Shown here one piece after another: positions 3,133 through 43,662 of a stretch of DNA of 64,000 nt. The stretch's first letter is position 1, and every line of letters starts with the position of its first letter. The notes beneath the pieces were generated by a model. The model saw nothing but the letters and a program-made list of their open reading frames with translations. It did not search any database and was not told the DNA's origin. A program made the position numbers and the translations under genes. The stretch is from Candidatus Hydrogenedens sp. (GTDB lineage Bacteria; Hydrogenedentota; Hydrogenedentia; Hydrogenedentales; Hydrogenedentaceae), in assembly GCA_049968235.1 (NCBI GenBank), contig JBMFRC010000002.1:64001-128000 (forward strand). Reading direction: 5' to 3'.

Positions 3133-3171
3133 CTTTTCACCTCCTCTCGTGGGGGTTTACCTAAACTTTTT

Positions 3172-3193
3172 GTCATGTTCACTGGAACATGAC
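3172..3193. repeat. Perfect inverted repeat GTCATGTTC-actg-GAACATGAC in a divergent intergenic region
   Basis: Seen directly: 9-bp arms with a 4-nt loop. On the plus strand a U-run (ctcgtttagttttttttatt) follows 3 nt later. On the minus strand it sits about 40 nt upstream of the RBS of the 2557..3132 gene. Confidence 0.5.
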
Positions 3194-3420
3194 CTCGTTT
3201 AGTTTTTTTTATTCAATTTTCACTATATAGTTTATACCACAAACCAGTTTGAGATGTCAAGTCAAATTTTCAAAATTTTAAAAAAATTTTATTCCCAAAA
3301 TATAACTGAAATTATTTTCACTATTCCACTACTTTTCATATATTACAAAAATAGAATACTCAACCATAACATTGAAAATAGTATAATAAAATACTACTAA
3401 ACATAGATTGGGATTCATTG

Positions 3421-4823
3421 ATGAAAAAATTATCAAGGAGAAATTTTCTTCTAAGTAGCACATTACCTCTGTTCCCATACATATATAAATCTACAAACAA
3501 GCAAAGCAATATAAATATTCTTCTTATCATTTCTGATGATTTGAACAATTACACTTCTTACTTAAATTGTGAACCTGAACTATTAACCCCGAACATTCAT
3601 TCACTGCAAAAACATTCTATTACCTTTGAAAATGCATATTGTCAGTATCCTCTTTGCCATCCATCAAGAACAAGTATGCTTACAGGACTTCATCCCTTCT
3701 CTACGGGCGTATACATGTCCGAACAGATTAATTCTGCAGAGTTGCCTATATTACCTCAGTATTTAAAGGAAACACATTACCTTACTGCTGGAATTGGAAA
3801 AGTATTTCATCCCAAATACAATATTGAAAATGTATGGGATTTTAACTTCGAAATATACGACAACCTTTACAATTTTATATACAAAAAAGATGACCCTTTA
3901 TCTGCACAAAATTTCTGTTATGGTCCTGTTGATATTTCCCTTGAAGATACTAATGACTACAAAATAGCCCAACAAGCAGTGGATTTTATTAAATCGAATA
4001 AAAATAATCCCTGGTTTCTTGCTATTGGTTTCCACACTCCTCATACCCCTCTTTTTGCACCCCGGGAGTTTTTCAAGAAAATCCCAAAAAATATTGTAAA
4101 AAAGCCTATCGTTCCCGACGATGATTTAAACGATATTCCAGAAGCAGGTATAAAATTAATAACGAAATACGATAAGGCAAACATACACCAACTTGTATTA
4201 GAAAGGAATATATGGGAAGAACTTATTTATGCCTATTTAGTTCGAATTGCATTCTTAGATGAACTTATTGGAAGCATATTAAAAAATCTTGAAGAAAGTA
4301 AGATATTTAACAATACTTGTATTCTTCTTTGCGGTGATAATGGATGGCATTTAGGGGAAAAGAAACGATGGCAGAAATTTACTCTATGGCAAGAAGCCAA
4401 TAAAGTCCCACTTATTCTGCATCTCCCTGATGGATATAAAGGAGGCTTAACCCTAAAAGAACCTGCTGGGCTTGTTGATATTTTCCCCACAATAACAGAC
4501 CTTCTCTCTTTAAATAAACCTGAAAATTAGAAGGTAAAAGTTTATTGCCTTCGATAAAAAAAGAAGTAATAGAAAATCCATATGTGGTAATTTCTCAGAT
4601 ATAAAATAACAATTTTGCCTTCCGTACGACACGATATTCGTATATTATTTATTATGATGGAAGCGAAGAACTATATGATTACCAATCAGACCCAGGAGAA
4701 TATCATAACATTGCTATGTTAGAAGAGAGTCAAGAAATAAAAAGGAATATCATTTCATTAATTCCCGATAATCAGCGGAAAAAGTTAGCCTCTATTATTA
4801 AAAAAGATATTTTCCAACCATAA
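3421..4823 (+). pseudogene. Cys-type (formylglycine) sulfatase with TAT signal, disrupted by a frameshift and an in-frame stop
   Basis: RRNFLL twin-arginine motif. Sulfatase signature CHPSRTSMLTG (C-x-P-S-R). Frame 1 ends at TAG 4528-4530 (..LSLNKPEN*). The conserved sulfatase C-terminus continues in frame 3 (GKSLLPSIKKEVIENPYVVISQI-TAA-NNNFAFRTTRYSYIIYYDGSEELYDYQSDPGEYHNIAM...QP*), ending at 4823. A TTG at 3418 is an alternative start. Confidence 0.6.
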
Positions 4824-4824
4824 A

Positions 4825-7482
4825 TCAATTCAAATAACCCAGATTTCTCAAAGTCTCCCTTGTTTCATCAGAGATATCCACTACCTTTCTTCCATCCTCT
4901 GTTCCTTTTGAATAGTACTCAACCCAGAAGAAAAATTCTTTTTTATCATTAGAATTGCCTGACTTCTGAACCTTCATATCTTCACTTGAGAAATAGAAAA
5001 ACTTTTCACCTTTTGACTGTAACAGATGATAACTAGAAGGATAACTTATTGCCCAACAATTTTGGATATGAATTTTCAACTCGCTTTTATCTTCTACCGG
5101 CATAATCTGAATTATTGCAGGTATAGAACTTTTTGGAAGAAATACATCTGCCTTCAAATCCATAGGTGTTGTTCTTTCATTTTTTGTCCGTAATACCCCT
5201 CCTTGAATTTTAGAAAATAGAATAGGCACAGAACATTGTATATTTACGGAACCTGTCCAGAAGGATACAGGATTCGAGAAACATAACCACCAACCTTCTT
5301 TTTTTAGTCCAAATTTTTGCATCAATAATATGGACATATCTTTAAATAATTCCGGTTGTTCTAAACTTACATCATAGTATTCTGCCATATTTTTTTGTAA
5401 ATCAAATAAAGATTTAACACCCTTAGGAATATCCTCCAAAAGTTTATACTGCTTTTTTACTAATGCCCTCATATCTCCTCTTAGACTTGATGAGAAAATA
5501 AGTCTTTCAGTCATTTTTTCTTTTGAAATAATATCTAACAAAGATACACCATCTAATGACACATCCTCTTTCTGATTTAATATTTCTAATATAGTAGGCA
5601 TTAAATCTTCCAGTATTACTCTATCTTTCACATGAAGTCCTGCATATTTGTTATTCGGGAATTTGATAATAGTTACATTCCTCATACTCTCCTCATACAC
5701 ATTATCATGTCCGTATAATCCATGTTCCCCTAAAGATTCCCCATGGTCAGAAACAACCGCTATAAAAGCAGAGTCATACAATCCAATGTCTTTTAAAAAA
5801 GCAAAAAAATCTCCTAAAGCATAATCTACTTTATAAACACAGTCATCATAAAGAGCATGAATATATGCAATCTCTTCCTCTGTTGGGTAAACATCCCCGG
5901 TTGCAAGATACTGAAGCAATAGCCCTAACGATGGGATATCTTCACAACCAATATAACCGTTTTCAGGTCTTACCATTCCTCGAGAAAACATTTTAAAATG
6001 TTCCTCACCCGCATCATAAATCAAATTTCCATACGCTTTTGAATGGACATCATAATTATGCATAAAGACAAATATTCGTTGATTTTGTTGATGGGCTATC
6101 CAATCTTTAGTTTCATTACAAACTTCCAATACAGTCCTCCGATTTCCTTCTCTTCCTTCTTCCGGTACAGAAAACAAATCCATTCCTCGTGCAAATCCAC
6201 GAGATGGAATAAACCACCATAAAAACCCCGCAAAACCTGCTGTTGTATATCCATAATCTCTCATCAGTTCAGGCAAGGTTCCCACATAAGGGTAAACATC
6301 TGTATTACGAGTTAAACCATGTCCTTCCGGAAATCGTCCTGTAAGCATGCTCATATGAGCCACAGGGGTAAATGTCTGGGTAGTATATGCATTTTCAAAA
6401 ACAACAGCATCCTTTGCAAAATTATCCAGATTTGGACTTGTAGGCAAATAATATCCATATGGTAGTAAATGGTCGGGTCTTAATGTATCGCAAGAAATAA
6501 TAAAAAAAGGGGGTCCCTTTTGGTTATTTTCAATTGTTGTATTTACAAGCATTGGATTTCCCCATACGCCGAAATCTCCAATGGAATTATTAATTGGGTT
6601 CATCTCAAAAATAAACTCTACCTCCTTACTTTCATATTTATCAAGACTTAATACACCTCTTTTCCATTTCCTATCTTCCTCTGTTACCTGTGGTCGCATT
6701 TCCGCATGATATATCGCATCTGTACTACCATCTGATACTATATGGATTGAAAAGGCTATTCCATCAGTCTGCCAATCTTGGCTTTCAGAAGTTTTCTTAT
6801 AAGCACCCAAAATAGGATTGTATATTCCAATATAAAAAATTAGTTTCATTCCCTGTTCAATTTTCCGAGTAAATATTACCTTTTCGTTCCATAAAACATC
6901 CATACACACACTACCTATTGTTAACTGTCGTGGATGTTTTTTTTCATAAGGCACAAAGTTTACTTTCTCTAAGTTTACTTCCTTCTCATCTGATATTCCT
7001 TGTATTTCTACCCATACCTTATCTACTGTATCAAATATAGGATTCTCTTTATCCGAAAATCTCAAAGCAAAGGAATATGTATGTATCTTCCCATCGTTAA
7101 TCAATCTCATCCCTTCGGAAGGGAAATAAATGTTATCATCCCATTTTTTACTTGACCAACCCCACCTTATTTCAGAACCCTTCTTACTGGATAAATATAT
7201 ATGAACAAATTGATACATTCCCATATCCATAGCGGATGACAGAGAAAATAACAGAATCTTTACATTTGGGTCCAAAGATTTTTTCCATTCTTTTCCCTCT
7301 AATATTAACTCTGGAAACTTTTCTCTTTTTTCCCAATATTCCTTCGAGAAACGGAATATGTCATCACCCCATGAGACACAACATATTGGTATAACAAACA
7401 TAAAAATAAAAACAATAAGAAGGGGAGTTTTCCTGTGAAAAAAAGAAACTATAGGTTTTTCTTTATATATATACTTATTCAT
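4825..7482 (-). CDS. Membrane-anchored sulfatase-fold (alkaline phosphatase superfamily) protein with novel N-terminal domain, paralog A (885 aa)
   Basis: N-terminal hydrophobic anchor followed by a roughly 300 aa domain with an IRWGWSS motif. Central sulfatase-like core FIISCDTLRPDHLLPYGY ... TFTPVAHMSMLTGRFPEGHG has Thr where FGly sulfatases have Cys and His where they have Arg. Metal/active-site-like blocks HGESLGEHGLYGH follow. The sulfatase-like C-terminus ends ..LRNLGYLN. Confidence 0.75.
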   Translation of the reverse strand: MNKYIYKEKPIVSFFHRKTPLLIVFIFMFVIPICCVSWGDDIFRFSKEYWEKREKFPELILEGKEWKKSLDPNVKILLFSLSSAMDMGMYQFVHIYLSSKKGSEIRWGWSSKKWDDNIYFPSEGMRLINDGKIHTYSFALRFSDKENPIFDTVDKVWVEIQGISDEKEVNLEKVNFVPYEKKHPRQLTIGSVCMDVLWNEKVIFTRKIEQGMKLIFYIGIYNPILGAYKKTSESQDWQTDGIAFSIHIVSDGSTDAIYHAEMRPQVTEEDRKWKRGVLSLDKYESKEVEFIFEMNPINNSIGDFGVWGNPMLVNTTIENNQKGPPFFIISCDTLRPDHLLPYGYYLPTSPNLDNFAKDAVVFENAYTTQTFTPVAHMSMLTGRFPEGHGLTRNTDVYPYVGTLPELMRDYGYTTAGFAGFLWWFIPSRGFARGMDLFSVPEEGREGNRRTVLEVCNETKDWIAHQQNQRIFVFMHNYDVHSKAYGNLIYDAGEEHFKMFSRGMVRPENGYIGCEDIPSLGLLLQYLATGDVYPTEEEIAYIHALYDDCVYKVDYALGDFFAFLKDIGLYDSAFIAVVSDHGESLGEHGLYGHDNVYEESMRNVTIIKFPNNKYAGLHVKDRVILEDLMPTILEILNQKEDVSLDGVSLLDIISKEKMTERLIFSSSLRGDMRALVKKQYKLLEDIPKGVKSLFDLQKNMAEYYDVSLEQPELFKDMSILLMQKFGLKKEGWWLCFSNPVSFWTGSVNIQCSVPILFSKIQGGVLRTKNERTTPMDLKADVFLPKSSIPAIIQIMPVEDKSELKIHIQNCWAISYPSSYHLLQSKGEKFFYFSSEDMKVQKSGNSNDKKEFFFWVEYYSKGTEDGRKVVDISDETRETLRNLGYLN

Positions 7483-7488
7483 ATCTGG

Positions 7489-10083
7489 CTATAAATATCC
7501 TGCATTCTTTATATTAGATATAGCATCTTCGGGTAGTTCAATTTCCTTCCGTTCATTTTCATTCGTTAATGGTTTTTGACGAATGAATATATATGTATTA
7601 CCATCGTTGAGAATATCAGGTATATTTTCCCAATACAAATTTTCTCCAGGTAATATAAATTCATACTCACTTACTAGTTCACTAATTCTATCTCGAGAAA
7701 CTACTTTAAATTTCTCCGGACTTCTAAAACCTATTCTTAATTCCTGTTTCATATCTTTCGGATATACATATAGGGAATAAGTATCTGCAATTTGTGGATA
7801 ACTTATGGTTCCATATAAACAATCCATTTTCTCCGCTTTCTTATACCAGAACATTATATTATCGGGTATCACCGAAATCAGATTGGGTCCGGGACATATA
7901 AATACCTCATCAGGAATATTTGTTTTTTTCCCTTTCATCTCGATAACCCAACCTTCTCCACTAAAAAATCTATAGGAACTCATTTCCGCTAAAAATTGTT
8001 TTACAAGGATATTTTCCTTTTCAAAAAGATTGACACATTCTGCCGGGTCCTGTAATAAATCAAAAAAACTCACCTTTGATTCTCTAAAAGAACAAATAAC
8101 CTTATGTTTATCCGATATGAGGGCTTCTTCATTCTGATATTGATTCTGAACGAAAATTTTCCTTGGAGTATTATATTCTCCTTCTATAATCTTAGACAGG
8201 GATACGCCATCCAGATTTTCATAGCTTATATTTAAATTATCCAGTATCGTAGGGACAATATCTTCTAAACAAACCAGATTTTCTATTCGTCTCCCGGCAT
8301 ATATAGCATTGGGGAACTTTATCATCATAGGAACTCGTGCAGTATGTTCATATACATCTACATGCTCATAACGACCATGTTCCCCTAATGCTTCTCCGTA
8401 GTCAGCAATCACTACAATAACAGATTTATCATACAAACCCTGTTCTTCCAAAAAATTAAACAGGTCACCTAACGCGTAATCTACTTTTGCAACGCAATCA
8501 TCATATAACGCATTGATATATAAATTTTCGTAAAAACCTAATTTCCCTAATGTTGCCTGTATGTGGTTAAAAAAACTTCTTGGATTAGGCATACATTCCG
8601 CTGTTAATAATTCAGGAACTTCGAGTATATCGCTGAAGAAAAAAAATCGAGCGTCTTCAGAACTATATATTGTCGCAGGGGGAAACATTCGGGTATGCAC
8701 ATCATAATTGTGTAAAAACACGAAAAGATTGTTATATTTCATCTTTTTTATTTCGTTCTTTAATATTTCTTGTGTAGAAAAAACATCGCGTAGATATTCT
8801 GGTGGATAAAAGAAACTATCCATCCCTCGCATATACCCTCTGGAAGGCAAAAACCATGTCGTTGCTCCTACCAATCCTATGGAATAGTACCCTAATTCTT
8901 TTAAATATTCTCCCAATAACTTAACATTATCATAAGCAGGAAGTTCTGCATTAACTCCATGGTTCTTCGGGAATAGCCCCGTTAAAAGACTCATATGAGC
9001 CACTGGAGTAAAGGTGCGTGTTGTATATGCTCGTTCAAATAATACTGCCTCCTTTGCAAATCTATCCAGATTTGGACTTGTTGGCAATGAATAACCATAT
9101 GGTAACAAATGGTCTGCTCGCATTGTATCGCAAGAAATAATAAATACGGGCGGATATTGCTTTGTTGTATCATCGTCATTTCGAATAATGATAGGATTAC
9201 CCCATAACCCATATTCTTCAGGAATATTTATCGCTGTTTTTTTGGTAAAAACAATTTGTACTTCTTTCCCTGCAAATTTTGATAGGTCTAATTCTGTAAA
9301 TCGCCATCCCTGGTCATCCTCTTTTTCCATCGGATTCATCTGATGTTCATATATATGTTCTTTTCTCTCATCACACGATACATCAATGGAAAAAGTATAT
9401 TTTTGTTTACTCCATTCTTGAACATACTTCTTCTGAGATAATGCTCCTACCTTTAGGTTATATATACCTGTATACAGTAGTAATCTATCCCCTGTTTGTA
9501 TTTTTGTAGTAAATGTCCAGATATCCTCAGGAATACAATTCATACATAATCCATTAAGCATAAATTGTCCCAATTCTGAAGGCAAATATCTAACTAATTC
9601 AACATTTTTCAATTGCAACCCATTATTAATCTTTTCTAAATTTGCAACTTCAATAATAAATTTATTGGCACTATCAACTATAGGGTTGATTTTATCAGGA
9701 TATTTAATTTCAAAAGTATATTGATGTAATTTGCCATCTGCAATCAGAGGAAGCTTATCTTCAGAAAAAGAATTCGGTCCTTCTTTATTTGCAGAACTCC
9801 ATCCCCATCGGATAAAAGCATTTTTGTCTGAAACCATCTCTATTTTTATTAGTTTGTATAAACTTAAATCTAAATGTATTTCATATTCAAAAAGAATCTT
9901 TCCTACCTCGCTTTGCTTCATCTGCCATTGTTCTCCGGAAATAGTTAAGTCAGTTCTCGGAAACTTATCATTCCAATATTTATCCGTTAGTCGAATGACC
10001 AATCCATAAGATTCCGACCACAAAAATACACTTATAAAGAGAACTTTTATTCCTATCTTGATATTTACATATCTGTTAAACAT
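7489..10083 (-). CDS. Membrane-anchored or secreted sulfatase-fold protein with novel N-terminal domain, paralog B (864 aa)
   Basis: Same architecture and motifs as paralog A: IRWGWSS, VFIISCDTMRADHLLPYGY, TFTPVAHMSLLTGLFPKNHG, YGEALGEHGRYEH, ends ..NAGYL. It lies 6 nt upstream of paralog A on the same strand. Confidence 0.75.
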   Translation of the reverse strand: MFNRYVNIKIGIKVLFISVFLWSESYGLVIRLTDKYWNDKFPRTDLTISGEQWQMKQSEVGKILFEYEIHLDLSLYKLIKIEMVSDKNAFIRWGWSSANKEGPNSFSEDKLPLIADGKLHQYTFEIKYPDKINPIVDSANKFIIEVANLEKINNGLQLKNVELVRYLPSELGQFMLNGLCMNCIPEDIWTFTTKIQTGDRLLLYTGIYNLKVGALSQKKYVQEWSKQKYTFSIDVSCDERKEHIYEHQMNPMEKEDDQGWRFTELDLSKFAGKEVQIVFTKKTAINIPEEYGLWGNPIIIRNDDDTTKQYPPVFIISCDTMRADHLLPYGYSLPTSPNLDRFAKEAVLFERAYTTRTFTPVAHMSLLTGLFPKNHGVNAELPAYDNVKLLGEYLKELGYYSIGLVGATTWFLPSRGYMRGMDSFFYPPEYLRDVFSTQEILKNEIKKMKYNNLFVFLHNYDVHTRMFPPATIYSSEDARFFFFSDILEVPELLTAECMPNPRSFFNHIQATLGKLGFYENLYINALYDDCVAKVDYALGDLFNFLEEQGLYDKSVIVVIADYGEALGEHGRYEHVDVYEHTARVPMMIKFPNAIYAGRRIENLVCLEDIVPTILDNLNISYENLDGVSLSKIIEGEYNTPRKIFVQNQYQNEEALISDKHKVICSFRESKVSFFDLLQDPAECVNLFEKENILVKQFLAEMSSYRFFSGEGWVIEMKGKKTNIPDEVFICPGPNLISVIPDNIMFWYKKAEKMDCLYGTISYPQIADTYSLYVYPKDMKQELRIGFRSPEKFKVVSRDRISELVSEYEFILPGENLYWENIPDILNDGNTYIFIRQKPLTNENERKEIELPEDAISNIKNAGYL

Positions 10084-10211: not shown

Positions 10212-11339
10212 TTGGTTGACGATGAAAAAGTAGATTATCCAATGTCCCCAATAAATAAAAAAACTATCATAAAAACAATTATTATAAACATCTCCGTTTT
10301 ATTGATTATATGTCTTTTTATTTGTTTCTTATTTTTACCTTTTGAAATATTCCTTCGCTTTAAGTATAAAGGAAATGAAAGAGTCATGTTAACCTCTCCC
10401 CCCATTATCGTCTGCTCTGAACAGGGGAGGGAAATCGCTAAGGGAGTTAAAGGAGAAGGCACAATAACTGTTAGAGACAATCCTCATATTTTTTATTTTG
10501 AAACCGACACAAAAGGAAGAAGAGTTACTCCTCAACCGAGCATTGATAATAAAGAATTTAATTGTTTATTTTTTGGCTGTTCTTTTACCTTCGGAACAGG
10601 TGTGAATAATGACCAGACCTTGCCTTATTATTTTGGGCAACTACATCCCGAAATAGAAGTATACAATTATGGAATTCCTGGAGGTTCTCCACAAGAAATA
10701 TATCTTCAATCTACTCATTCTGAAATTTTTGCAGATATCCCCACCAAACCCACAATTGTGATATATACTTTCATCTCTGACCATTTACGAAGATTGAAAG
10801 GCACAATAAATTTAATATTCAGAGCCCCTAAATGGGTTGGCTGTTTACCAGAATTGGAGATTGTTAATACCAAAGTGATTAATAAAGGCAAATTCGAGAA
10901 AACACATCCTTATTTGTTTTCTTTTGCCAATATAATAAGCAACTCTCTTGTAATAAAACAGATGATAAATTACACTCAGATGGATTATCCATCACCTTTT
11001 ACAAACGAAAATTATGACTTTTTATGTAACTTGCTAAATGAAACGAGAAATCAATTATCTATTCAGTTTCCTAATTTATATTTTGTGATATTTATCTATC
11101 CCGAACATTGTTTTACCCCTAACACCTGCCCTAATTTAGATTATTTCATAAATATCCTTAATATGAGAAAAGAGTTAATGTTAATTTCCTGCGAAGAAAA
11201 GAAAATGATAGAAAATTATTCCCAACTCAAATCCTCCGGAAAACATATAATTTTAGATGGACATCCCAGTCCGGAATGTTACAAATTATTTGCGGAATGG
11301 ATAAGTAATGGACTGAAAAATAAGGGAATTATTCCATAA
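10212..11339 (+). CDS. Membrane-anchored SGNH/GDSL-like hydrolase or acyl-esterase candidate (375 aa)
   Basis: N-terminal TM helix (IINISVLLIICLFICFLFLPF). Block I-like FFGCSFTFGTG (G-C-S in place of G-D-S). C-terminal ILDGHPSPECY resembles SGNH block V (DxxH). No other family signal. Confidence 0.45.
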   Translation: MVDDEKVDYPMSPINKKTIIKTIIINISVLLIICLFICFLFLPFEIFLRFKYKGNERVMLTSPPIIVCSEQGREIAKGVKGEGTITVRDNPHIFYFETDTKGRRVTPQPSIDNKEFNCLFFGCSFTFGTGVNNDQTLPYYFGQLHPEIEVYNYGIPGGSPQEIYLQSTHSEIFADIPTKPTIVIYTFISDHLRRLKGTINLIFRAPKWVGCLPELEIVNTKVINKGKFEKTHPYLFSFANIISNSLVIKQMINYTQMDYPSPFTNENYDFLCNLLNETRNQLSIQFPNLYFVIFIYPEHCFTPNTCPNLDYFINILNMRKELMLISCEEKKMIENYSQLKSSGKHIILDGHPSPECYKLFAEWISNGLKNKGIIP

Positions 11340-19139: not shown

Positions 19140-22100
19140 TTAATTTGCCGGACCTACACCAAAGCCATCTTCTCCAACAGAATCGATATGATAACCGCCA
19201 GCATTAAAGAATTGAATTAATCGCAATAATTCAGTAAAGTCTATTTTCCAATTCTTAGGATTATAATCGGATGTGTGATAATTACAACTATGATTTACCC
19301 CATCACCAACATCATATCCATCTTCTGTAGATGTCGATACATCCGCACAGTGATATCCGAATGAATTAAAGAACTGAATTACACGCAATAACTCACGGAG
19401 TTCTATCTTCCAATTCCCGTTTACATCCGCACTATGTCGGGAAGGAGGTTCTCCTTCAGATACACCTTCTACAGTTCCTTCTCCCTCAGGCACACCTTCA
19501 GGACTTCCTTCTTCATTCGAAATCACAGTTGCAACCACAGGATAGACGAGCATATTGGGTCCACCTGTAAACGATACAATAGCAAGGTATTCCCCTGAAG
19601 AAAGGTCATTTGCACAGAATCTCACAACTATGGACTGGCTTTCTCCCGGAGCAAGATTATAATTATAATCAGAGGTAATTTGGAACACATCTGCTGATAA
19701 CTCTGGAGCACTTATTATCGCATTTCCTATCAAAGCAGATGTACTCAATTCAGAATTCATTATAGCAAATGTCCCTTCCACGCACTCACCCGCATTTACC
19801 TCACCTAGATCCAATACATAAGGATTAATAACTGGAACAACAATACTTTGTTCCCCCTCAGTTACTCCTTCGGGTTCGATAGGAAGAAACATTGCTTTTA
19901 GAACTGTATTTTGACTAATACTGAATGTTACAGGATTAGCTGTCCCAGCAAACTGCCCATTAATCGTCCAGCCCTGCCAGATATCTTTCGACGAATTATA
20001 AGTAGCCTGTGCGGTTACTGTGGTTCCAAAATAATAATACCCGGGCTGTAAACCTTCACTACTTTCAGGTGATACCTGAACTGAAACAGGAGCGGTATTC
20101 CCCTCTGTTACCACAGATAATTGATACATCGGTAAAATCTCACCTTCATTTGTCTCACTAAAGCATGGAGCACCACAGCCACCTCCATTACTCTTTGCCG
20201 TTGGGTCAACTGCAGAAACTACAAAGGTGATAATACTTTCTCCACTTTCATTGAAGGTAGCATTATATTCCGCTAAATTACAAACCCTATCTCCATCCGC
20301 ATCACCAAACGCACCTAAATACTGACTTGCAGAAGTATCCACCTGGTTTACTATGAAAGATATCCCTACCTGTCCTGCTATTTGAGAAAGCATTGATAAT
20401 GAAATACCTTCTCCCAATGTGGCTATTCCTGTAAATAATGCCTTCAACTGATTTACATCCACTTTTGATAAAATATTTTGAGGGATTACTCCCTGTGATA
20501 CCGCAGTATCAATTATATTCGTAAACAAGGCATAATTGCTTTGCCATGCAGACAATACACAACAACGGTTCTGAACACCCGGGTTCGCCAATATAATATC
20601 CAGAAGTTGCAATTGAGCAGACTCCACCATTTGATTACCATCGAAATCTGTTGTAATCGAATTAATACTCATCATTGAACAATATGCTTCCCACGCATTC
20701 CGGGCATTCCCTTGAACTCCAATATTACCACATGAGGTAATAGCACACGGTACTGGACAACCTTCAGGAATTTCTCCTTCACCCTCTACAATACCTTCAG
20801 TAGATCCTTCAGCGGAACCTTCTCCTTCAAAATTACCTTCGGGGAGCCCTTCAACAGTTCCCTCAGGTTCAATACACGGAGCATAACGGGACAGGTCACT
20901 TTCCTTATATTCAGAAGGAACTCCCTTTCCTGCTGAAATACCTGCTAATCCATCATACGCTTCTATATTTAACCACGTTATCGCAATCCGACCATCAAAG
21001 AACATCTCTATCTGGAAACTGGCTGTATCATTTGTAAAGTTACCATCAACCTTAACCTCATGATAGGTCACAACGAAACGGTCATCCAACTGCTTCCACC
21101 AGATTTGTCCGCCATCATTCGGTTTCAGATTATCAAACAGACCTGAAACACGCGGTATACGGAAATGATTTTCCGGTGATTCCTTATTCTCGGTATCCCC
21201 TTCTGTAAACGTTAAATAACCATTACTACCTATAAATACACGGTCATAAGCCACTCCATAAAGAATAACCTGTTTCCCGTCTGCCAGAGGTACCTCGACA
21301 TAGGCATCATCACCTAAACTGACCGGTGTTGAAAGTATCGAATCTACCGGGTAATCTGTAATCCCCGTAATAGTGCATGCAAAATAACCGTTAGCATTAT
21401 TCGCCGGAGTTAAAAGTAACCGTTTATTATCCAAGTCATTGTCAACAACAAAGTCTTCTGTAAACCAATCCGTTGCAGGTTGAGAGGGTGGACCGGAGGT
21501 AAAATTCACCTCACAAGGACGGAATTCTAAATCTAAGGGTCCGTTAAACGGGGACCAGGGTATCGTCATAATGGGTAAATCCCACCGACCTCCAAAAATA
21601 CTAATAAATACATTCGGATAAAACTTAACCGTTAAAATAAGGTTACAAATTTCATTATAGTTCATCACAGAGCGATAGCCATCTTCACCTACTTGTACGG
21701 GTACGGATTGTCCCTCCTCCCAGAATAATAAACCTTCCTGTAAACTTATAGTATCACATTCCAGGGAACCATTTGCATCCGCTGAAACATCAATACCTGC
21801 CCCTGATGAAAAAGGAATCCACTTTAACCAGTCCGGTAAAGTAACACCTACTAAGTTCAATATTACTTTTACAAGGTCCACATCAAACAAATGCGTTTTA
21901 GGTGTATTATCTTGAATCGTAGAGGCAGTATCTAACAAAAAACTATTAAAATAATCATATGCAGTTGTACGAAATTCCACATCAGGAATGTAAGGAACAT
22001 CTACTGTAAACGGAGGAATAATTCCTATATCAAACCCCGCTTTCATGAGCAATTCCGCTCCGAAATCATACCCCCAGAAGCCACTGGCATTACCTGCTGT

Positions 22101-22943
22101 TAACCATGGCGGATTTAAATGGAAAAAGCCCTGCACATCCGCCTGGTAATTAGCAACTGCTGCAGCGCGAATACGCACCTGAACTGGAAATCCTCCCGGA
22201 TTTTCCTCAAATCCACCCTCTCCTTTACCATTAGGCCACCAGCCTGAATCAAAACTTAGGTTTAACCCTTTCATTGGTGCGGTAAACTGGACAGGTTGCG
22301 TTTCTACTGCTTTACCTAAGTCTCCCTTTACATCAACCTTAACTATCTCTTCAACACCACCTGTAACAGTATATTCTGTATTAATTGATTTCATACCCGA
22401 ACAGGGTTCTAACACTTGTACAATAACTCCAGACTTCCCATCCTGTTGATAATCCCAGCGAATTAAAACGGGACGAACCCCATTTTCCGAATAAATCTCT
22501 TTCCTCTGCTCTACATATAAAAGTTTATCTTTCAAAAAACATTTCGTCTCACTTACACCTTCATTCCCTTTCGTTTGAACAATAGACCATTCTAAAGAAA
22601 TGTTTTCTAATTGCAATCGAAAATTCTTGCTACCATCGTTTGACATTATCTTTTCCGTCTTATCAAAATATTTCTCTAATAATGCACGATTCATTGAAGT
22701 AAAGCCAGGAAAGCCAACTCCTTGTTTACCGAATTGCATTATACTTCGACGAACAACGCCATCTTCGCTGAATTCCACATATTCCAGAGAACCCTCTTCT
22801 CTTGCTAACAACTGAAGTTTTGCATCAGGAGGAATATTATCTCCTTCCCAGCGTGCTGAATATACCCAGTATGATTCTGTAAAACCAACAGCAGAAATAC
22901 ATACAATAAGAATTAATGCAAACATTAACTTCTTGTATTCCAT
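19140..22943 (-). CDS. Giant secreted multidomain protein (1267 aa) with (P)EG-rich linkers and C-terminal dockerin/EF-hand-like tandem repeats
   Basis: Signal peptide MEYKKLMFALILIVCISAVGFT. Low-complexity linkers EPEGTVEGLPEGNFEGEGSAEGSTEGIVEGEGEIPEG and EEGSPEGVPEGEGTVEGVSEGEPP. Two C-terminal repeats: DVNGNWKIELRELLRVIQFFNSFGYHC and DYNPKNWKIDFTELLRLIQFFNAGGYHI. An internal GDADGDRVCNLAEY Ca-loop-like motif. Confidence 0.7.
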   Translation of the reverse strand: MEYKKLMFALILIVCISAVGFTESYWVYSARWEGDNIPPDAKLQLLAREEGSLEYVEFSEDGVVRRSIMQFGKQGVGFPGFTSMNRALLEKYFDKTEKIMSNDGSKNFRLQLENISLEWSIVQTKGNEGVSETKCFLKDKLLYVEQRKEIYSENGVRPVLIRWDYQQDGKSGVIVQVLEPCSGMKSINTEYTVTGGVEEIVKVDVKGDLGKAVETQPVQFTAPMKGLNLSFDSGWWPNGKGEGGFEENPGGFPVQVRIRAAAVANYQADVQGFFHLNPPWLTAGNASGFWGYDFGAELLMKAGFDIGIIPPFTVDVPYIPDVEFRTTAYDYFNSFLLDTASTIQDNTPKTHLFDVDLVKVILNLVGVTLPDWLKWIPFSSGAGIDVSADANGSLECDTISLQEGLLFWEEGQSVPVQVGEDGYRSVMNYNEICNLILTVKFYPNVFISIFGGRWDLPIMTIPWSPFNGPLDLEFRPCEVNFTSGPPSQPATDWFTEDFVVDNDLDNKRLLLTPANNANGYFACTITGITDYPVDSILSTPVSLGDDAYVEVPLADGKQVILYGVAYDRVFIGSNGYLTFTEGDTENKESPENHFRIPRVSGLFDNLKPNDGGQIWWKQLDDRFVVTYHEVKVDGNFTNDTASFQIEMFFDGRIAITWLNIEAYDGLAGISAGKGVPSEYKESDLSRYAPCIEPEGTVEGLPEGNFEGEGSAEGSTEGIVEGEGEIPEGCPVPCAITSCGNIGVQGNARNAWEAYCSMMSINSITTDFDGNQMVESAQLQLLDIILANPGVQNRCCVLSAWQSNYALFTNIIDTAVSQGVIPQNILSKVDVNQLKALFTGIATLGEGISLSMLSQIAGQVGISFIVNQVDTSASQYLGAFGDADGDRVCNLAEYNATFNESGESIITFVVSAVDPTAKSNGGGCGAPCFSETNEGEILPMYQLSVVTEGNTAPVSVQVSPESSEGLQPGYYYFGTTVTAQATYNSSKDIWQGWTINGQFAGTANPVTFSISQNTVLKAMFLPIEPEGVTEGEQSIVVPVINPYVLDLGEVNAGECVEGTFAIMNSELSTSALIGNAIISAPELSADVFQITSDYNYNLAPGESQSIVVRFCANDLSSGEYLAIVSFTGGPNMLVYPVVATVISNEEGSPEGVPEGEGTVEGVSEGEPPSRHSADVNGNWKIELRELLRVIQFFNSFGYHCADVSTSTEDGYDVGDGVNHSCNYHTSDYNPKNWKIDFTELLRLIQFFNAGGYHIDSVGEDGFGVGPAN

Positions 22944-24209: not shown

Positions 24210-27047
24210 ATGAATTTTATAGTCTTCATTCCGTTGCTACTTCATCTCCTTCATTTCCCACAAATAAACAATCCTTTTGAAAATGCACATTTAATCATAG
24301 ACCCACGTATGAAAGATGTTATCCCTAATAACAATTTCATGACGAACACAAAAAATGACTGGATAAAAGACAGTCCCCACCAGATACATACACTATTCAG
24401 AAAAATTTTTGTTGTTGAAAAATTTCCTAAATTGGCAGAGATATATATTACTGCAGATGACTATTTTAAACTCTATATAAATGGTGAACATATTTTAGAA
24501 GGTCCAACAAACGGTTATCCTTTTGCCTACCCTTATTTTAAGTTTAACCTGACCCCATTCATTAGGACAGGGACAAATATACTGGCTATTCACACATATT
24601 ACAGAGGGTTAATAAATCGTGTTTGTGTCAGTGGTGATAATCGTTCCGGGCTTATCTTGAAACTTATACTTACCGATATGGAGGGACGAAAAACAGAGAT
24701 TGTATCTGATACAACATGGAAATGCTTCCCTCTGGATGCATTTATTACGACTGACACTATAGGTTATAAAACACAATTCATTGAGAATATAGATATGCTA
24801 AAATACCCAAAAGACTGGCAATCCCTTGATTTCGATGATAGCCACTGGATAAACCCCGAATTAGGAAAAAGTGACTACACTTTTGTTGACTTACCTGCAA
24901 AACCATTAGAAATAAAAAATGTTTTCCCCAAAGAAAAGAAAAAAATTAATTCAGGACATTTCATTTTTGATTTCGGTCGCGAAGTCGTTGGATACACGAG
25001 AATAAAAACTAGGGGTGAAAGAGGACAAAAAATGATAGTTTATCATGGGGAAGAACTGGATGAAAACGGATATGTCCGCTGGCAAATGCGAGCATACTGT
25101 GATTACAAAGAAGAAATCATTTTATCCGGTGAAGAAGATATTTCTCCTTTCTATGAATACCGTGCCTTTCGATATATTGAATTGGATAATGCTCCCGAAG
25201 AAACCTCCGTATGGGTTGAAGAACGCCATTACCCATTTGACACCACAAAAGTTCTCTTTTATTCTTCAGATAAGGATTTAACAAATATATGGGATATTTG
25301 TCAATTGGGAGTTCGACTTTGCTCGCAAGAAGGCTTTTTGGATTGTCCTTCCCGTGAAAAAGGACAATATTTAGGAGATGCAGTTATTACATCTCGTTCC
25401 TTTATGTGGCTTACAGGAGATACTTCATTAACAAAAAAATCATTAATAGATTTTTCTCTTTCAACAAAAATAGATCCTGGTCTAACAGCGGTTGCACCTT
25501 CCGGGTTTATTCAAGAACTTGCCGAATACTCCCTTCAATATCCATTAATGCTATGGGAATACTATCGTCATTCCGGTGACAAAGATTTTCTAAAAGCAAT
25601 GGCAACAGAATGTTTACCATCACTCCTATACTATTTTGCACAGTTTGAAAATGAATCCGGCTTATTAAACTCTACCGGGAAAAAACCTATTTTGATTGAT
25701 TGGCCCAAAAACCTTCGTGATAATTTCGATTATGATTATGCCCAGAACAAACCTAATGCGGTCGTTAATGCTTTTTATTACGGAGCCGTTACAACAACAC
25801 TGGAAATACAAAAGACGCTCGGCATAGAAGACACTGCACTCAAAGAAAAAGCAGAAAAAATATGGAATGGCTATCAAAAAATCTTTCTGGACTCTGAAAA
25901 GAAACTTTATAAAGATGCTCCAAACTCGAAACATTATGCTCTGCATAGCAATGCTCTACCTCTCTACTTTGGATTGGTAAAAGATGAAAAAGTAAAAGAA
26001 AATATTTTCTCTTTAATTGAACAAAAAGGACTTTACTGTGGTGTTTATATCGCATCTTACATCATTGAAGCATGCTTCAAAGAAGGAAATCCCGAATTAG
26101 GATGGAAACTATTAACAAACAACACAGAATATTCATGGAAGGAAATGCTTCGCAATGGGGCTACTTCCTGCCTTGAAGTGTGGAAACCCGAAATGAAATC
26201 AAATATGAGTTGGTGTCATGCATGGAGTAGTTGCCCTATTTATCTCTTATCGGAATATGTATTAGGTCTAAAAATCGGCAAACCCGGCTGGGAAGAAATC
26301 CACTTCTCCCCAGCAAAAATAAACGATTTACCCGATATGTTTCTCATTAAACCCTTACCTGATGGAGGTTATTGCTCTGTGAATATAAAAAACAATAACT
26401 ATAACCTGACCGTTCCTGAGAATATTCATGTAATAACAGATGGTGTGCAGTGTGGAAATATTTCTGTTCATACTGTTTTATCTCACCAAAGTCCGACAGA
26501 ACTATCCGAAGAAGAAAAGACACTACTGAAAAATTATCAGTGGGACATAAAGACAGAAAACACTCGAGGAATTTGGGTTTCTATCAAAAAACAAAAATTA
26601 TATGTAATTGAAAAAAACAAAGTAGTATGGCAAACTCTTTGTTCCACTGGGATAAAAGGAATAGGTGAAAAATTAGGTTCCGAACAAACCCCCAGAGGGT
26701 GGCATCAAATTGTTGAAAAAATTGGTGACAATGCCCCATGGGGACAAATCTTTCGCAATCGTCAACCCGTAGGGATATGGGATAAAAGTCAGATTACAGA
26801 TGAATCCCTTGTCCTAACTCGAATACTGCGTCTTGATGGCTTGGAAGAAACAAAGAATAAAGGTATTAATAACGAAGGAGAAATTGTAGATTCGTATCAA
26901 CGATTCATTTACATTCATGGCACCAATAAAGAAGAACTTATAGGCACTCCTTTTACACGTGGTTGTATCGGTCTAACTAATAATGATGTGATTATGCTCT
27001 ACAACATTGTTCCCCTCAACACGAAAGTTCTTATTACAGAAGAATAA
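24210..27047 (+). CDS. GH78 alpha-L-rhamnosidase-like glycoside hydrolase fused to a C-terminal L,D-transpeptidase (YkuD) domain (945 aa)
   Basis: N-terminal Bac_rhamnosid_N-like YITADDYFKLYINGEHILEGP. Six-hairpin catalytic-region motif LDCPSREKGQYLGDA. C-terminal YkuD-like block ..IYIHGTNKEELIGTPFTRGCIGLTNND (His ... Cys catalytic pair). Confidence 0.7.
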   Translation: MNFIVFIPLLLHLLHFPQINNPFENAHLIIDPRMKDVIPNNNFMTNTKNDWIKDSPHQIHTLFRKIFVVEKFPKLAEIYITADDYFKLYINGEHILEGPTNGYPFAYPYFKFNLTPFIRTGTNILAIHTYYRGLINRVCVSGDNRSGLILKLILTDMEGRKTEIVSDTTWKCFPLDAFITTDTIGYKTQFIENIDMLKYPKDWQSLDFDDSHWINPELGKSDYTFVDLPAKPLEIKNVFPKEKKKINSGHFIFDFGREVVGYTRIKTRGERGQKMIVYHGEELDENGYVRWQMRAYCDYKEEIILSGEEDISPFYEYRAFRYIELDNAPEETSVWVEERHYPFDTTKVLFYSSDKDLTNIWDICQLGVRLCSQEGFLDCPSREKGQYLGDAVITSRSFMWLTGDTSLTKKSLIDFSLSTKIDPGLTAVAPSGFIQELAEYSLQYPLMLWEYYRHSGDKDFLKAMATECLPSLLYYFAQFENESGLLNSTGKKPILIDWPKNLRDNFDYDYAQNKPNAVVNAFYYGAVTTTLEIQKTLGIEDTALKEKAEKIWNGYQKIFLDSEKKLYKDAPNSKHYALHSNALPLYFGLVKDEKVKENIFSLIEQKGLYCGVYIASYIIEACFKEGNPELGWKLLTNNTEYSWKEMLRNGATSCLEVWKPEMKSNMSWCHAWSSCPIYLLSEYVLGLKIGKPGWEEIHFSPAKINDLPDMFLIKPLPDGGYCSVNIKNNNYNLTVPENIHVITDGVQCGNISVHTVLSHQSPTELSEEEKTLLKNYQWDIKTENTRGIWVSIKKQKLYVIEKNKVVWQTLCSTGIKGIGEKLGSEQTPRGWHQIVEKIGDNAPWGQIFRNRQPVGIWDKSQITDESLVLTRILRLDGLEETKNKGINNEGEIVDSYQRFIYIHGTNKEELIGTPFTRGCIGLTNNDVIMLYNIVPLNTKVLITEE

Positions 27048-40980: not shown

Positions 40981-43662
40981 CTATTTTCCTACAGATTTTT
41001 CTCCCAATTTTGAGCGATATGATTGGATATATTCTGCAATTTCTGGATAATTTAATGTTTCCGCAAGTTCTTGAGGTGTTCTGCCTCGTGTATCTCGGGC
41101 ATCTATATCAGCACCTGCTTTCAGTAGAATATCCACAATGTTAATTTGTCGCTCTTGAACTGCCAGATGAAGTGGAGTAAAACCATCAATCCCCAATCCT
41201 CTTACATTTAAGTCAACTTTGCAATTAACCAGAACTGATGTCATTTCCGGAGAGTGTTTTATTATAGTCCTGTGAATTGGTGCTTTGCCGAAATAAAAAA
41301 TTTCAGCGAAATTAGGATAATATTCAACAATTTTTTTAAGTCCTTCTATATCATTTCTTTCAATTCTCTGTAAATATTCTTCACAAATAACCGCATAGAA
41401 CAAACGAACTACCCCTTGTAATCCTTCAAACAGACGTATTTGAGACATTGTTGCTCCTGCTACAAGAACTGTTTTTTCAAGTCGTTCTTCCGCTTCATCC
41501 AGGGGTGTTTTGCCTGAATTATTACGGACACATATTTCTGCTCGTTTCGTAAGGATAAGTTGCACAAAACGCTCCTGTCCATTCATACACGCATGATGAA
41601 GGGGGGTATTCCCGGAAGTATCCGGTAGATTGGGGTCAACACCTTTTAATATTAAAATTTGGGCAGGACCCCAATGTCCTCTCGCGGAACAGAGATGAAT
41701 AGCGGACTGCCCTGTTTGTGAAGGCTTTTTATAATCAACACCCAAATCAATCAATTCTTTAACTATTATGATATGTCCTCTAATACAAGCTAGATGAATA
41801 GGTGCATAACCATCTTTATTCAGTTCATCCATAGGCAATTTTTTACCCGCAAGCCATATTACTGTATCCACAGCACCACTCTGACATGCATAATGTAAAG
41901 CAGAATTTCTTTTTGCATCAAGCGCAAATAAATCCAGTCCAAATCCCTCTAACCAGCGAATCATTTCTGAGTTTTCCGAACATGCCCCCACATGAATCAG
42001 TGTTCGTTGTTCACGGTCAATTACATCTGTTCTGGCTCCATGCTCAACAAGATATTTTGCAATAGTAAGACTATCCACTTCTACAGCAACAAATAAAGGC
42101 GTTTTCCCCACTGCATTTGCATAATTAACATCGGCTCCCTGTTGCACAAGAAATTCAACCGCATCCTGTTCTTTTGCCTCTACAGATAAATGCAATGGAG
42201 TGTTTCCAGAACGCTCTGTTTCATTAATATCCAGTCCTTTTTCAATAAATAACTGCATCAAAGGAATCAATCCCAATGAAGATGCAAGATGTAAAATCGT
42301 TTTACCACTTTTATCCCGTGCATGGATATTGGCTCCCTTATCTACCAACCATCTCGCCATTTCTTCATTCTTCTTTTCAACTGCAATAAACAACGGCGTA
42401 TATCGAGAACGGTCTGTTATCTCAAGGTCAGCACCCTGTCGTATCAAATCTTCCGCTATCTCTCTTTCGCCCATTTCCACTGCTAAAAAAAGAGGGGATT
42501 TCCCATCTTTATTTCGCAAATTAAGATTGGCACCTCTCTCAACAAGAATTTGAACAATTTCCTTCTTTTTCTGTTCAACTGCAAAATGGAGTGGTGTTTC
42601 AGAATTCCGAACAACATTTACACAGTTCACATCCGCTCCCAAATCCAGCAAAAACTTAACAATATCCGCATCGGATTTTTCTATAGCATATTCAATAGGA
42701 TAGGTATCCTTTCTTACACTTCCCAACCCATTAATATTTACTCCCAAATCGACCAGGAACCGTATCATATCTTTATTTTTGTGTAATATGGCAACACTTA
42801 AAGGTCTATCTCCTTCAATCGTTGATACATCCAGACTTGCTCCTCTTTGAAGTAGATATAAAAGAACCTCTTTTTGGTTAGAGGCTATTGCATCAATTAC
42901 AGGGGGCGTCGAATAACGAGTAGGTGCAGAAACAAGCCATTCCGGATGTTCTTTTAAATATGCGTCTATAGTCTCAATATCCCCAAAACCAATAGCATGG
43001 GACAATGAATAATGAGCATCATAACCTCTCAACACATGAACCACTTCAAAATTTTTCTTCTTTCCTGCCAATAAAGAGGGGCTACTATAAACACTTCCAT
43101 CCGGGACTAAGGGTAATATAGGATTTGCTCCTTTGATTATTAACATGCGTGCGACATCGCCAGTTCCGGACTCTGCGCAAATATGAAGTGGCGAGTAATT
43201 TTCCTTGTTCCGGGAATTCGGATTTAATCCAAGATTTATCAGATGTTCTATTACATATACACTTTGTGCCGATGATGCCAGATGAAGTGAATTATTTCCT
43301 TTTTCATCTGTGCAAAACACATCTCCACCCCATGAAATCCAAATATCGGACATATAGGGAAAGCCTAACCCGGCAGACATTAAATAATATTTATTCTTCT
43401 CCTCCGTTGAAATGGAATCCTTTTCGGAGGAACAATATAACAGGGCATAAATATCTCCTGCTTTTATCAATTCTTCCAGCGAAGAATATCCCCATTTTTG
43501 AAGATTTTCCAAAATAGAACCTGTTTGTTTTTCATCTGCATATACAAAATTTTGAATTACAGATTGAATATACATATGAGTTTTAAAAGATAACATTACA
43601 AAAAATATAATCATTAAAAATATAACAATATAAAGTGACCTCATAACTTTCTTTCTTAGCAT
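40981..43662 (-). CDS. Membrane-anchored ankyrin-repeat protein (893 aa, more than 20 ANK repeats)
   Basis: N-terminal TM LYIVIFLMIIFFVMLSF. Reiterated 33-aa ANK consensus (..G.TPLH.A...G....V..LL..GA.VN..). The orphan ORF set 42200..43517 on the plus strand lies inside this gene. Confidence 0.8.
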   Translation of the reverse strand: MLRKKVMRSLYIVIFLMIIFFVMLSFKTHMYIQSVIQNFVYADEKQTGSILENLQKWGYSSLEELIKAGDIYALLYCSSEKDSISTEEKNKYYLMSAGLGFPYMSDIWISWGGDVFCTDEKGNNSLHLASSAQSVYVIEHLINLGLNPNSRNKENYSPLHICAESGTGDVARMLIIKGANPILPLVPDGSVYSSPSLLAGKKKNFEVVHVLRGYDAHYSLSHAIGFGDIETIDAYLKEHPEWLVSAPTRYSTPPVIDAIASNQKEVLLYLLQRGASLDVSTIEGDRPLSVAILHKNKDMIRFLVDLGVNINGLGSVRKDTYPIEYAIEKSDADIVKFLLDLGADVNCVNVVRNSETPLHFAVEQKKKEIVQILVERGANLNLRNKDGKSPLFLAVEMGEREIAEDLIRQGADLEITDRSRYTPLFIAVEKKNEEMARWLVDKGANIHARDKSGKTILHLASSLGLIPLMQLFIEKGLDINETERSGNTPLHLSVEAKEQDAVEFLVQQGADVNYANAVGKTPLFVAVEVDSLTIAKYLVEHGARTDVIDREQRTLIHVGACSENSEMIRWLEGFGLDLFALDAKRNSALHYACQSGAVDTVIWLAGKKLPMDELNKDGYAPIHLACIRGHIIIVKELIDLGVDYKKPSQTGQSAIHLCSARGHWGPAQILILKGVDPNLPDTSGNTPLHHACMNGQERFVQLILTKRAEICVRNNSGKTPLDEAEERLEKTVLVAGATMSQIRLFEGLQGVVRLFYAVICEEYLQRIERNDIEGLKKIVEYYPNFAEIFYFGKAPIHRTIIKHSPEMTSVLVNCKVDLNVRGLGIDGFTPLHLAVQERQINIVDILLKAGADIDARDTRGRTPQELAETLNYPEIAEYIQSYRSKLGEKSVGK

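Follow-up and report, generated by a model that had tools for sequence, protein, structure and literature searches.

Metal-dependent phosphatases with a threonine nucleophile occur in the alkaline-phosphatase superfamily. The S1 sulfatases and phosphonate monoester hydrolases (PMHs) use a formylglycine (FGly) derived from Cys or Ser, which in S1 sulfatases is set in the signature (C/S)-x-(P/A)-x-R and accompanied by a sulfate-binding Lys (LysB) that follows a D-(N/H)-G motif. According to the SulfAtlas authors, Thr occupies the catalytic position in 30 of the 59 Pfam seed sequences of PF00884; its oxidation would lead to a ketone and never to formylglycine, and experimental evidence is needed before Thr-type PF00884 proteins can be regarded as sulfatases (PMC5066984). 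A Thr that replaces Cys/Ser in PF00884 is thus on record and not unusual. In the phosphoethanolamine (pEtN) transferase MCR-1, D465, H466 and H478, together with E246 and H395, coordinate zinc beside phospho-Thr285 (PMC5153839). Here, we analysed a window of 64,000 nucleotides from a metagenome-assembled genome (MAG) of Candidatus Hydrogenedens, in which two adjacent genes, p1 and p2, encode Thr-type proteins on a sulfatase-derived scaffold. These are probably not sulfatases, and are best read as secreted, metal-dependent, glycan-directed phosphoryl-transfer enzymes with Thr372 as the nucleophile. Residue numbers refer to the p1 and p2 proteins.

4825..7482, minus strand: gene p1, 885 aa, Thr-type sulfatase-fold protein with a signal/anchor helix, beta-sandwiches N1 and N2, catalytic domain, C-terminal beta-sandwich and LGY tail
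7489..10083, minus strand: gene p2, 864 aa, paralogue of p1 with the same architecture, directly upstream of p1
6367..6369, minus strand: Thr372 codon of p1, at the sulfatase Cys/FGly nucleophile position, invariant in the 23- and 43-sequence alignments
9007..9009, minus strand: Thr359 codon of p2, at the nucleophile position, equated with p1 residue 372 by hmmalign

The two threonines lie within the motif TFTPVAHMS(M/L)LTG, which starts at residue 370 in p1 and at residue 357 in p2, where TFTPVAHMSLLTG begins. In phmmer alignments to the PDB sulfatases 7oz8 and 4upi, Thr372 falls in the Cys/FGly column and His376 in the Arg column. A BLASTP comparison with the neighbouring canonical sulfatase, which serves as an in-window control, pairs F-T372-P-V-A-H376 with L-C-H-P-S-R, and the same positions are assigned by an hmmalign of 241 relatives. 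These three independent alignments agree with an earlier, sequence-only reading of the pair, which had placed Thr at the FGly-forming Cys position and His at that of the Arg. In the BLASTP alignment, moreover, His480 falls opposite the sulfatase His, Asp579/His580 opposite Asp/Asn and His592 opposite the sulfate-binding Lys; relative to sulfatases, p1 keeps the metal ligands Asp332 and Asp579/His580 as well as His480. The S1 signature is absent, the segment reading T372-P-V-A-H376 in p1 and identically in p2, and LysB has given way to His592; relatives that carry Lys always have Cys and Arg as well. Among 38 catalytic-domain relatives, all five with Cys have Arg and Lys, while in those with Thr His376 is usual and His592 universal. 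Similarly, 63 relatives with the N-terminal domain carry Thr in 62 cases, H480 in 61, and H376, D579, H580 and H592 in 60 each. The changes from Cys/Arg/Lys to Thr/His/His are coupled across relatives. Moreover, D332, R335, T372, H376, H388, H480, D579, E582 and H592 are invariant in 43 full-architecture members that share about 25% identity, and such conservation in so diverse a set argues for an active rather than a decayed enzyme.

The scaffold on which these residues sit is that of the sulfatase branch of the alkaline-phosphatase superfamily, as had been proposed from the sequence and as Pfam, Foldseek and a profile search of the PDB all indicate. Both proteins belong to PF00884 (111.0 bits for p1 and 109.8 bits for p2, gathering cut-off 25) and match the sulfatase C-terminal lobe SGSH_C (PF16347). 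When the p1 catalytic fold was compared with the PDB using Foldseek, the top 50 matches were all S1 sulfatases, including choline sulfatase, or PMHs (E 1e-22 to 1e-18; TM-score normalised to the target 0.56-0.70), and p1 has the two-lobed fold with the SGSH_C-type lobe. The profile search of PDB sequences returned the same ranking, with E-values down to 1.7e-55 and no Thr-type structure among its matches. BT1918 (7oz8), choline sulfatase (6g5z) and PMH (2vqr/4upk) are thus the closest enzymes in sequence and fold, and share with p1 the first metal Asp, D-(H/N)-G-E, the LTG-x-x-P-x-x-HG helix cap and the His equivalent to H480. In contrast, where they have the Cys/Ser-derived FGly, Arg and Lys, p1 has Thr, His376 and His592, and p1 and p2 add two N-terminal beta-sandwiches, a C-terminal beta-sandwich and the LGY tail. 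It is this closeness in sequence and fold, with the PF00884 and SGSH_C matches, that would make p1 and p2 genuine sulfatases with an unconventional nucleophile, and a canonical sulfatase gene adjoins the pair. NCBI names them accordingly: p1 is 100% identical to P0002 ('MAG: sulfatase, partial [Candidatus Hydrogenedens sp.]') and p2 to P0019 ('MAG: sulfatase [Candidatus Hydrogenedens sp.]'). However, we regard this as highly improbable, given that (C/S)-x-(P/A)-x-R is replaced by T-P-V-A-H and the sulfate-binding Lys by His, that formylglycine is not obtainable from Thr (PMC5066984), and that the NCBIfam arylsulfatase models score 123-148 bits against a cut-off of 481. The sulfo-transferase or sulfatase chemistry that the sequence-only reading had left open is unlikely. 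The Mn-dependent arylsulfatase EfAS, an NCBIfam match, was rejected as a model, as it uses Cys61/FGly. Literature searches found no characterised Thr-type member of the sulfatase branch, and the NCBIfam and PDB searches found no characterised or crystallised member of the family, which bears out its earlier description as uncharacterised.

Threonine-dependent chemistry is instead found in the pEtN and phosphoglycerol transferases (EptA/MCR-1, EptC, LtaS, OpgB), which resemble the pair in their Thr nucleophile, extracytoplasmic catalytic domain and S-D-H-G-E-S-L-G-E-x-G...H motif. Positions 431-529 of the NCBIfam MCR-1 profile (541 positions) align to p1 residues 545-638, and the offset of this alignment puts D579/H580/H592 on MCR-1 D465/H466/H478. 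By sequence correspondence, p1 has the Thr nucleophile (T372), the Asp-His pair (D579/H580) and the distal His ligand (H592) of this group. His480 and His475 may likewise correspond to MCR-1 H395 and H390, a match suggested by the common H-x4-H spacing and not an aligned result. Unlike p1, EptA and LtaS carry a lipid-binding module of about five transmembrane (TM) helices; the secondary structure of the AlphaFold2 (AF2) model of p1 shows one hydrophobic N-terminal helix or signal peptide (residues 11-35) followed by beta-sandwiches, which upholds the earlier remark that a 5-TM module is lacking. The p1 scaffold also differs from that of the EptA/LtaS group in carrying the sulfatase C-terminal lobe.

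A further likeness is to the nucleotide pyrophosphatase/phosphodiesterase (NPP) type (PF01663), which shares Thr in a T-x-x-x-H-x-x-x-x-T-G context and a D-x-x-R-x-D first strand. The PF01663 score for the whole protein is 48-50 bits against a cut-off of 23, with the best stretch covering only profile positions of about 3-70 of 342; in both proteins the match falls on the first 70 or so residues of the catalytic domain. NPP matches in the PDB are weak (E about 3e-7), and the remainder of the p1 catalytic domain is sulfatase-like. The segment H475-N-Y-D478-x-H480 could be an analogue of the D-x-x-x-H/distal His zinc site of NPPs. The PF01663 match and the NPP-like D-x-x-R-x-D ... T-x-x-x-H-x-x-x-x-T-G-x-x-P-x-x-H-G pattern, together with the predicted export of the proteins and the existence of metal-dependent Thr-nucleophile phosphatases in the superfamily, would also suit broad-specificity phosphate monoesterases (PafA/PhoK-like, with a Thr nucleophile) that scavenge phosphate, rather than a glycan-directed diesterase or transferase. 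We consider this unlikely, since three accessory beta-sandwiches and tandem arrays of 2-4 paralogues fit diversification on polymeric substrates better, and no Pho-regulon neighbours were seen in the window.

The accessory domains are seen in the full-length AF2 model of p1, a confident one with a mean predicted local distance difference test score (pLDDT) of 82.4 and a predicted TM-score (pTM) of 0.83.

7378..7452, minus strand: p1 N-terminal hydrophobic helix, residues 11-35, a Sec signal peptide or signal anchor, modelled by AF2 at low confidence
6943..7359, minus strand: p1 N1 beta-sandwich, residues 42-180, holding IRWGWSS and DGKIH.Y.F
6541..6927, minus strand: p1 N2 beta-sandwich, residues 186-314, holding FY.GIYN and the invariant W307-G308-x-P310
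5368..6507, minus strand: p1 catalytic domain, residues 326-705, an S1 sulfatase/PMH scaffold with PF00884 and SGSH_C
4912..5295, minus strand: p1 extra C-terminal beta-sandwich, residues 730-857, seen as AF2 strands with pLDDT mostly 75-89 and no Pfam match above threshold
4828..4869, minus strand: p1 terminal helix and ...LRNLGYLN tail, residues 872-885, with the helix at 872-881 and G882 and Y883 invariant

With a single N-terminal hydrophobic segment, the protein is predicted to be extracytoplasmic. Because orthologues close the helix 11-35 segment with small-residue sites of the SWG, SMG or SYG type, the hydrophobic N-terminus of p1 may be cleaved as a signal peptide rather than kept as an anchor. 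The motifs quoted in the sequence-only reading were all recovered at equivalent positions of the two proteins: IRWGWSS starts at residue 105 in p1 and 91 in p2, DGK(I/L)H at 130 and 116, GIYN at 219 and 206, and (V/L)WGNP at 306 and 293. Neither the N-terminal region of about 283 aa nor the C-terminal region of about 180 aa matches a Pfam family even at E <= 10. The description of the N-terminal region as an unrecognised, novel IRWGWSS domain therefore survives in part: there is no Pfam family, but the model indicates two jelly-roll beta-sandwiches like those of carbohydrate-binding modules (CBMs), which are familiar folds without a named sequence family, and about 1,150 representative clusters match them. 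Compared with galactose-binding-like beta-sandwiches of the CBM51/MAM/CBM6 type, the region has no more than 14% identity and no Pfam or NCBIfam match, and by sequence the N-terminal modules fall outside the CBM51-like family. IRWGWSS itself was rejected as a family signature, since outside the close Hydrogenedens subfamily W109 alone is conserved. The C-termini end in ...LGYLN and ...AGYL in the pair; what had been taken for a sulfatase-like C-terminus (..LGYL) is instead a region of about 180 aa made up of the extra beta-sandwich, a helix and the LGY tail.

The analysis shows directly which residues stand at the catalytic positions, how they are conserved and covary, the fold and domain architecture, the distribution of the clade and the age of the duplication; from these we infer that the chemistry is on phosphate esters, that His480/His592 hold a second metal, that a glycan is targeted and that the LGY tail may have a role. 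In the proposed mechanism, a metal ion would activate Thr372, which would then attack a phosphate ester and give a covalent phospho-Thr; the ester is most likely a phosphodiester group carried by a glycan or by the head group of a glycolipid. This intermediate would be resolved either by water, as in a phosphodiesterase, or by an acceptor hydroxyl, as in the transferases EptA, LtaS and OpgB, while His480 and His592, like H395 and H478 of MCR-1, would either bind a second metal or supply a proton to the leaving group. Outside the cytoplasm, a polymeric carbohydrate substrate would be held by the pair of N-terminal CBM-like jelly rolls together with the C-terminal beta-sandwich. A bolder and quite tentative proposal is that the clade makes up a new class of secreted enzymes, guided by their CBMs, that decorate extracellular or envelope glycans with phosphodiesters or strip such decorations off, with the conserved ...L-x-x-LGY tail docking TPR (tetratricopeptide repeat) modules.

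Several points weigh against phosphoryl transfer of this kind. The placing of His480 and His592 as second-metal ligands is by analogy, and the sequence and model evidence fits a hydrolase as well as a transferase. The pair also falls outside the transferase families, as the best EptA score is 34.7 bits against a cut-off of 561, MCR models reach 15-32 against 1100-1250 and LtaS 19 against 970; these scores are far under the cut-offs (500-1250), and the roughly 60-100 aligned residues cover only the D-H-G-E...H stretch. Finally, the gene neighbourhoods are weak and mixed, being degradative in Hydrogenedens and biosynthetic elsewhere. In other phyla, the recurrent neighbours are family 4 glycosyltransferases (GT4; 15 loci), membrane NPP-family proteins (7), ATP-binding cassette (ABC) exporters (6) and ArnC-like GT2s (6), and two NDP-sugar epimerase/dehydratases, a GT2 and a methyltransferase come after one full-architecture member. 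Nearby GT genes were not accepted as proof of a biosynthetic role, since GT4 is common and a count of 15 in about 80 loci may hardly exceed background. Taken together, the neighbourhood signals suggest extracytoplasmic glycans and do not separate decoration from degradation, and the envelope-modifying role proposed from the sequence is plausible.

The p2 protein departs from the family at a single catalytic position.

8398..8400, minus strand: p2 Tyr562 (TAC), replacing the metal-ligand His of the D-H-G-E motif

In the column of p2 residue 562, 230 aligned relatives have His, two have Asn, and this p2 alone has Tyr. The p2 of this genome may therefore be impaired by the His-to-Tyr replacement at a metal ligand, and on a rival reading one or both proteins, mainly this p2, would be non-catalytic pseudoenzymes that bind or scaffold glycans. 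YejM/PbgA is a precedent for pseudoenzymes within the alkaline-phosphatase superfamily. The remaining catalytic positions of p2 and all those of p1 are nevertheless intact and family-invariant, and all p2 orthologues keep His; Tyr562 could reflect genuine inactivation, a mutation peculiar to the strain or a mistake in the assembly. Overall, we hold a pseudoenzyme to be rather improbable, unlikely for p1 and possible for p2.

The C-terminal tail offers a further feature of the clade. A sequence of the form [LIVMFA]-G-[YF] plus at most seven residues ends 90 of the 122 relatives that are complete at the C-terminus, and it is absent from canonical Cys-type sulfatases in the same searches; judged by these sequences, the Thr-type clade is marked out by the ...L-(R/K)-x-LGY-x tail. 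Since a C-terminal TPR array stands in place of the tail in seven of eight tail-less relatives tested, the LGY tail might be a docking peptide for TPR modules.

Within the window, the spacer between p2 and p1 is 6 bases and the open reading frame (ORF) calls make the two genes co-directional; they probably form an operon. A scan for promoters and terminators was uninformative, with 19 promoter-like sites against 29.7 expected. The neighbours are as follows.

3418..4784, plus strand: convergent neighbour, a canonical Cys-type (C-H-P-S-R) sulfatase with a Tat-like signal and an apparent frameshift near 4527
10212..11339, plus strand: divergent neighbour, a membrane-anchored protein with weak SGNH/GDSL-esterase similarity, syntenic in the relative locus L001
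11340-13760, minus strand: a PAS/HisKA/HATPase/receiver hybrid histidine kinase

The ORF of the convergent sulfatase ends at 370 aa, tblastn similarity resumes in another frame at 4527-4784, and the orthologue in L001 is 477 aa long, so that the gene probably carries a frameshift, whether as a pseudogene or through sequencing error. The divergent protein has the motifs GCSFTFG and DGHPS and matches NF047474 at E = 2.4e-7, which lies under that model's cut-off, and PDB 4rsh at E = 0.004. A GH123-like (glycoside hydrolase) protein also flanks the pair, GH78 and GH30 genes lie farther off, and a TPR protein (30-1772) is encoded three genes downstream, a synteny that is kept in relatives.

The sequence-only reading took the pair for a recent duplication, which the comparison of relatives contradicts. 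While p1 and p2 align end to end, they share 34% identity (E = 4e-164), and in a neighbour-joining tree of 23 family members they fall in separate clades, that of p1 with 13 further members (43-79% identity to p1) and that of p2 with four (60-81% identity to p2), each present in several Hydrogenedens genomes. The orthologues stand in tandem in L001, a locus found on three contigs, and on one contig in at least three relatives. In L001, whose p1 orthologue is 59% identical, the gene order is GH123-like, third paralogue, SGNH-like, p2, p1, canonical sulfatase, a 191-aa protein, RNase HII and the TPR protein, and the third paralogue (3143-5770, 875 aa) sits where the window has the hybrid histidine kinase. 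Low identity, separate clades and conserved order therefore identify p1 and p2, on sequence comparison, as old paralogues, and their substrates presumably differ. Tandem arrays of 2-4 diverged paralogues are frequent in Acidobacteriota and other phyla (L006, L083, L015, L016, L026-L028), and their presence in many phyla makes tandem paralogy general to the family and not special to this window.

The pair belongs to a large, widespread, uncharacterised Thr-nucleophile clade of the alkaline-phosphatase superfamily (PF00884) that databases label 'sulfatase'. When species-representative genomes were scanned, at least 463 relatives came to light, the majority from Acidobacteriota, Planctomycetota, Myxococcota, Binatia and related MAGs; Hydrogenedentota, Acidobacteriota, Planctomycetota and Myxococcota are all rich in the clade. 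When a profile of N1-N2 was searched against 1.84 billion representatives, 1,147 clusters matched at E <= 1e-3 and 180 at E <= 1e-10. The catalytic domain is also present in 63 of the 145 newly found representatives (P0065-P0209), with Thr in 62 of the 63, and other matches have the N2 module only, some of them in proteins of about 1,100-1,200 aa that begin with a GT-C (PMT_2) domain and also have TPR repeats. A cluster look-up of ten representatives yielded names for the Hydrogenedens members only; a second word-indexed homologue search, run with the 43-sequence alignment, largely reproduced the first set and brought no further names. As a separate observation, the N2 module (W..x.LDLS.Y.GK.V...F ... 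VWGNP) stands at the C-terminus of the GT-C (PMT_2, ArnT-like) and TPR proteins P0099 and P0105, which ties the module to the enzymatic modification of envelope glycoconjugates.

Hundreds of proteins from environmental genomes that bear the name 'sulfatase' or 'arylsulfatase A-like' are members of this Thr/His/His clade, and almost certainly have no cleaving activity on sulfate esters; the sulfatase counts from which sulfated-glycan degradation is gauged are therefore inflated in Hydrogenedentota, Planctomycetota and Acidobacteriota. The clade is also a natural case in which three residues change in concert to switch the reaction chemistry of one scaffold, relevant to promiscuity within the alkaline-phosphatase superfamily. 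If its substrates are indeed phospho-decorated glycans, its members would be unrecognised players in the turnover of the envelope and extracellular polymers. No long-standing open question is touched, and Thr in PF00884 is already on record.

Three other genes of the window are worth recording. At 24210-27047 (plus strand), a 945-aa protein fuses an N-terminal GH78 alpha-L-rhamnosidase (concanavalin-like and six-hairpin domains) to a C-terminal YkuD L,D-transpeptidase, an unusual fusion. The 1,267-aa ORF at 19140-22943 (minus strand) has no Pfam family, its sole match being a weak choice-of-anchor D domain (E = 5e-4). Lastly, the 893-aa protein encoded at 40981-43662 (minus strand) consists almost wholly of ankyrin repeats (Ank_2 E = 7.5e-133), which are uncommon in bacteria, and its gene adjoins the GH30 gene at 43683-45056.

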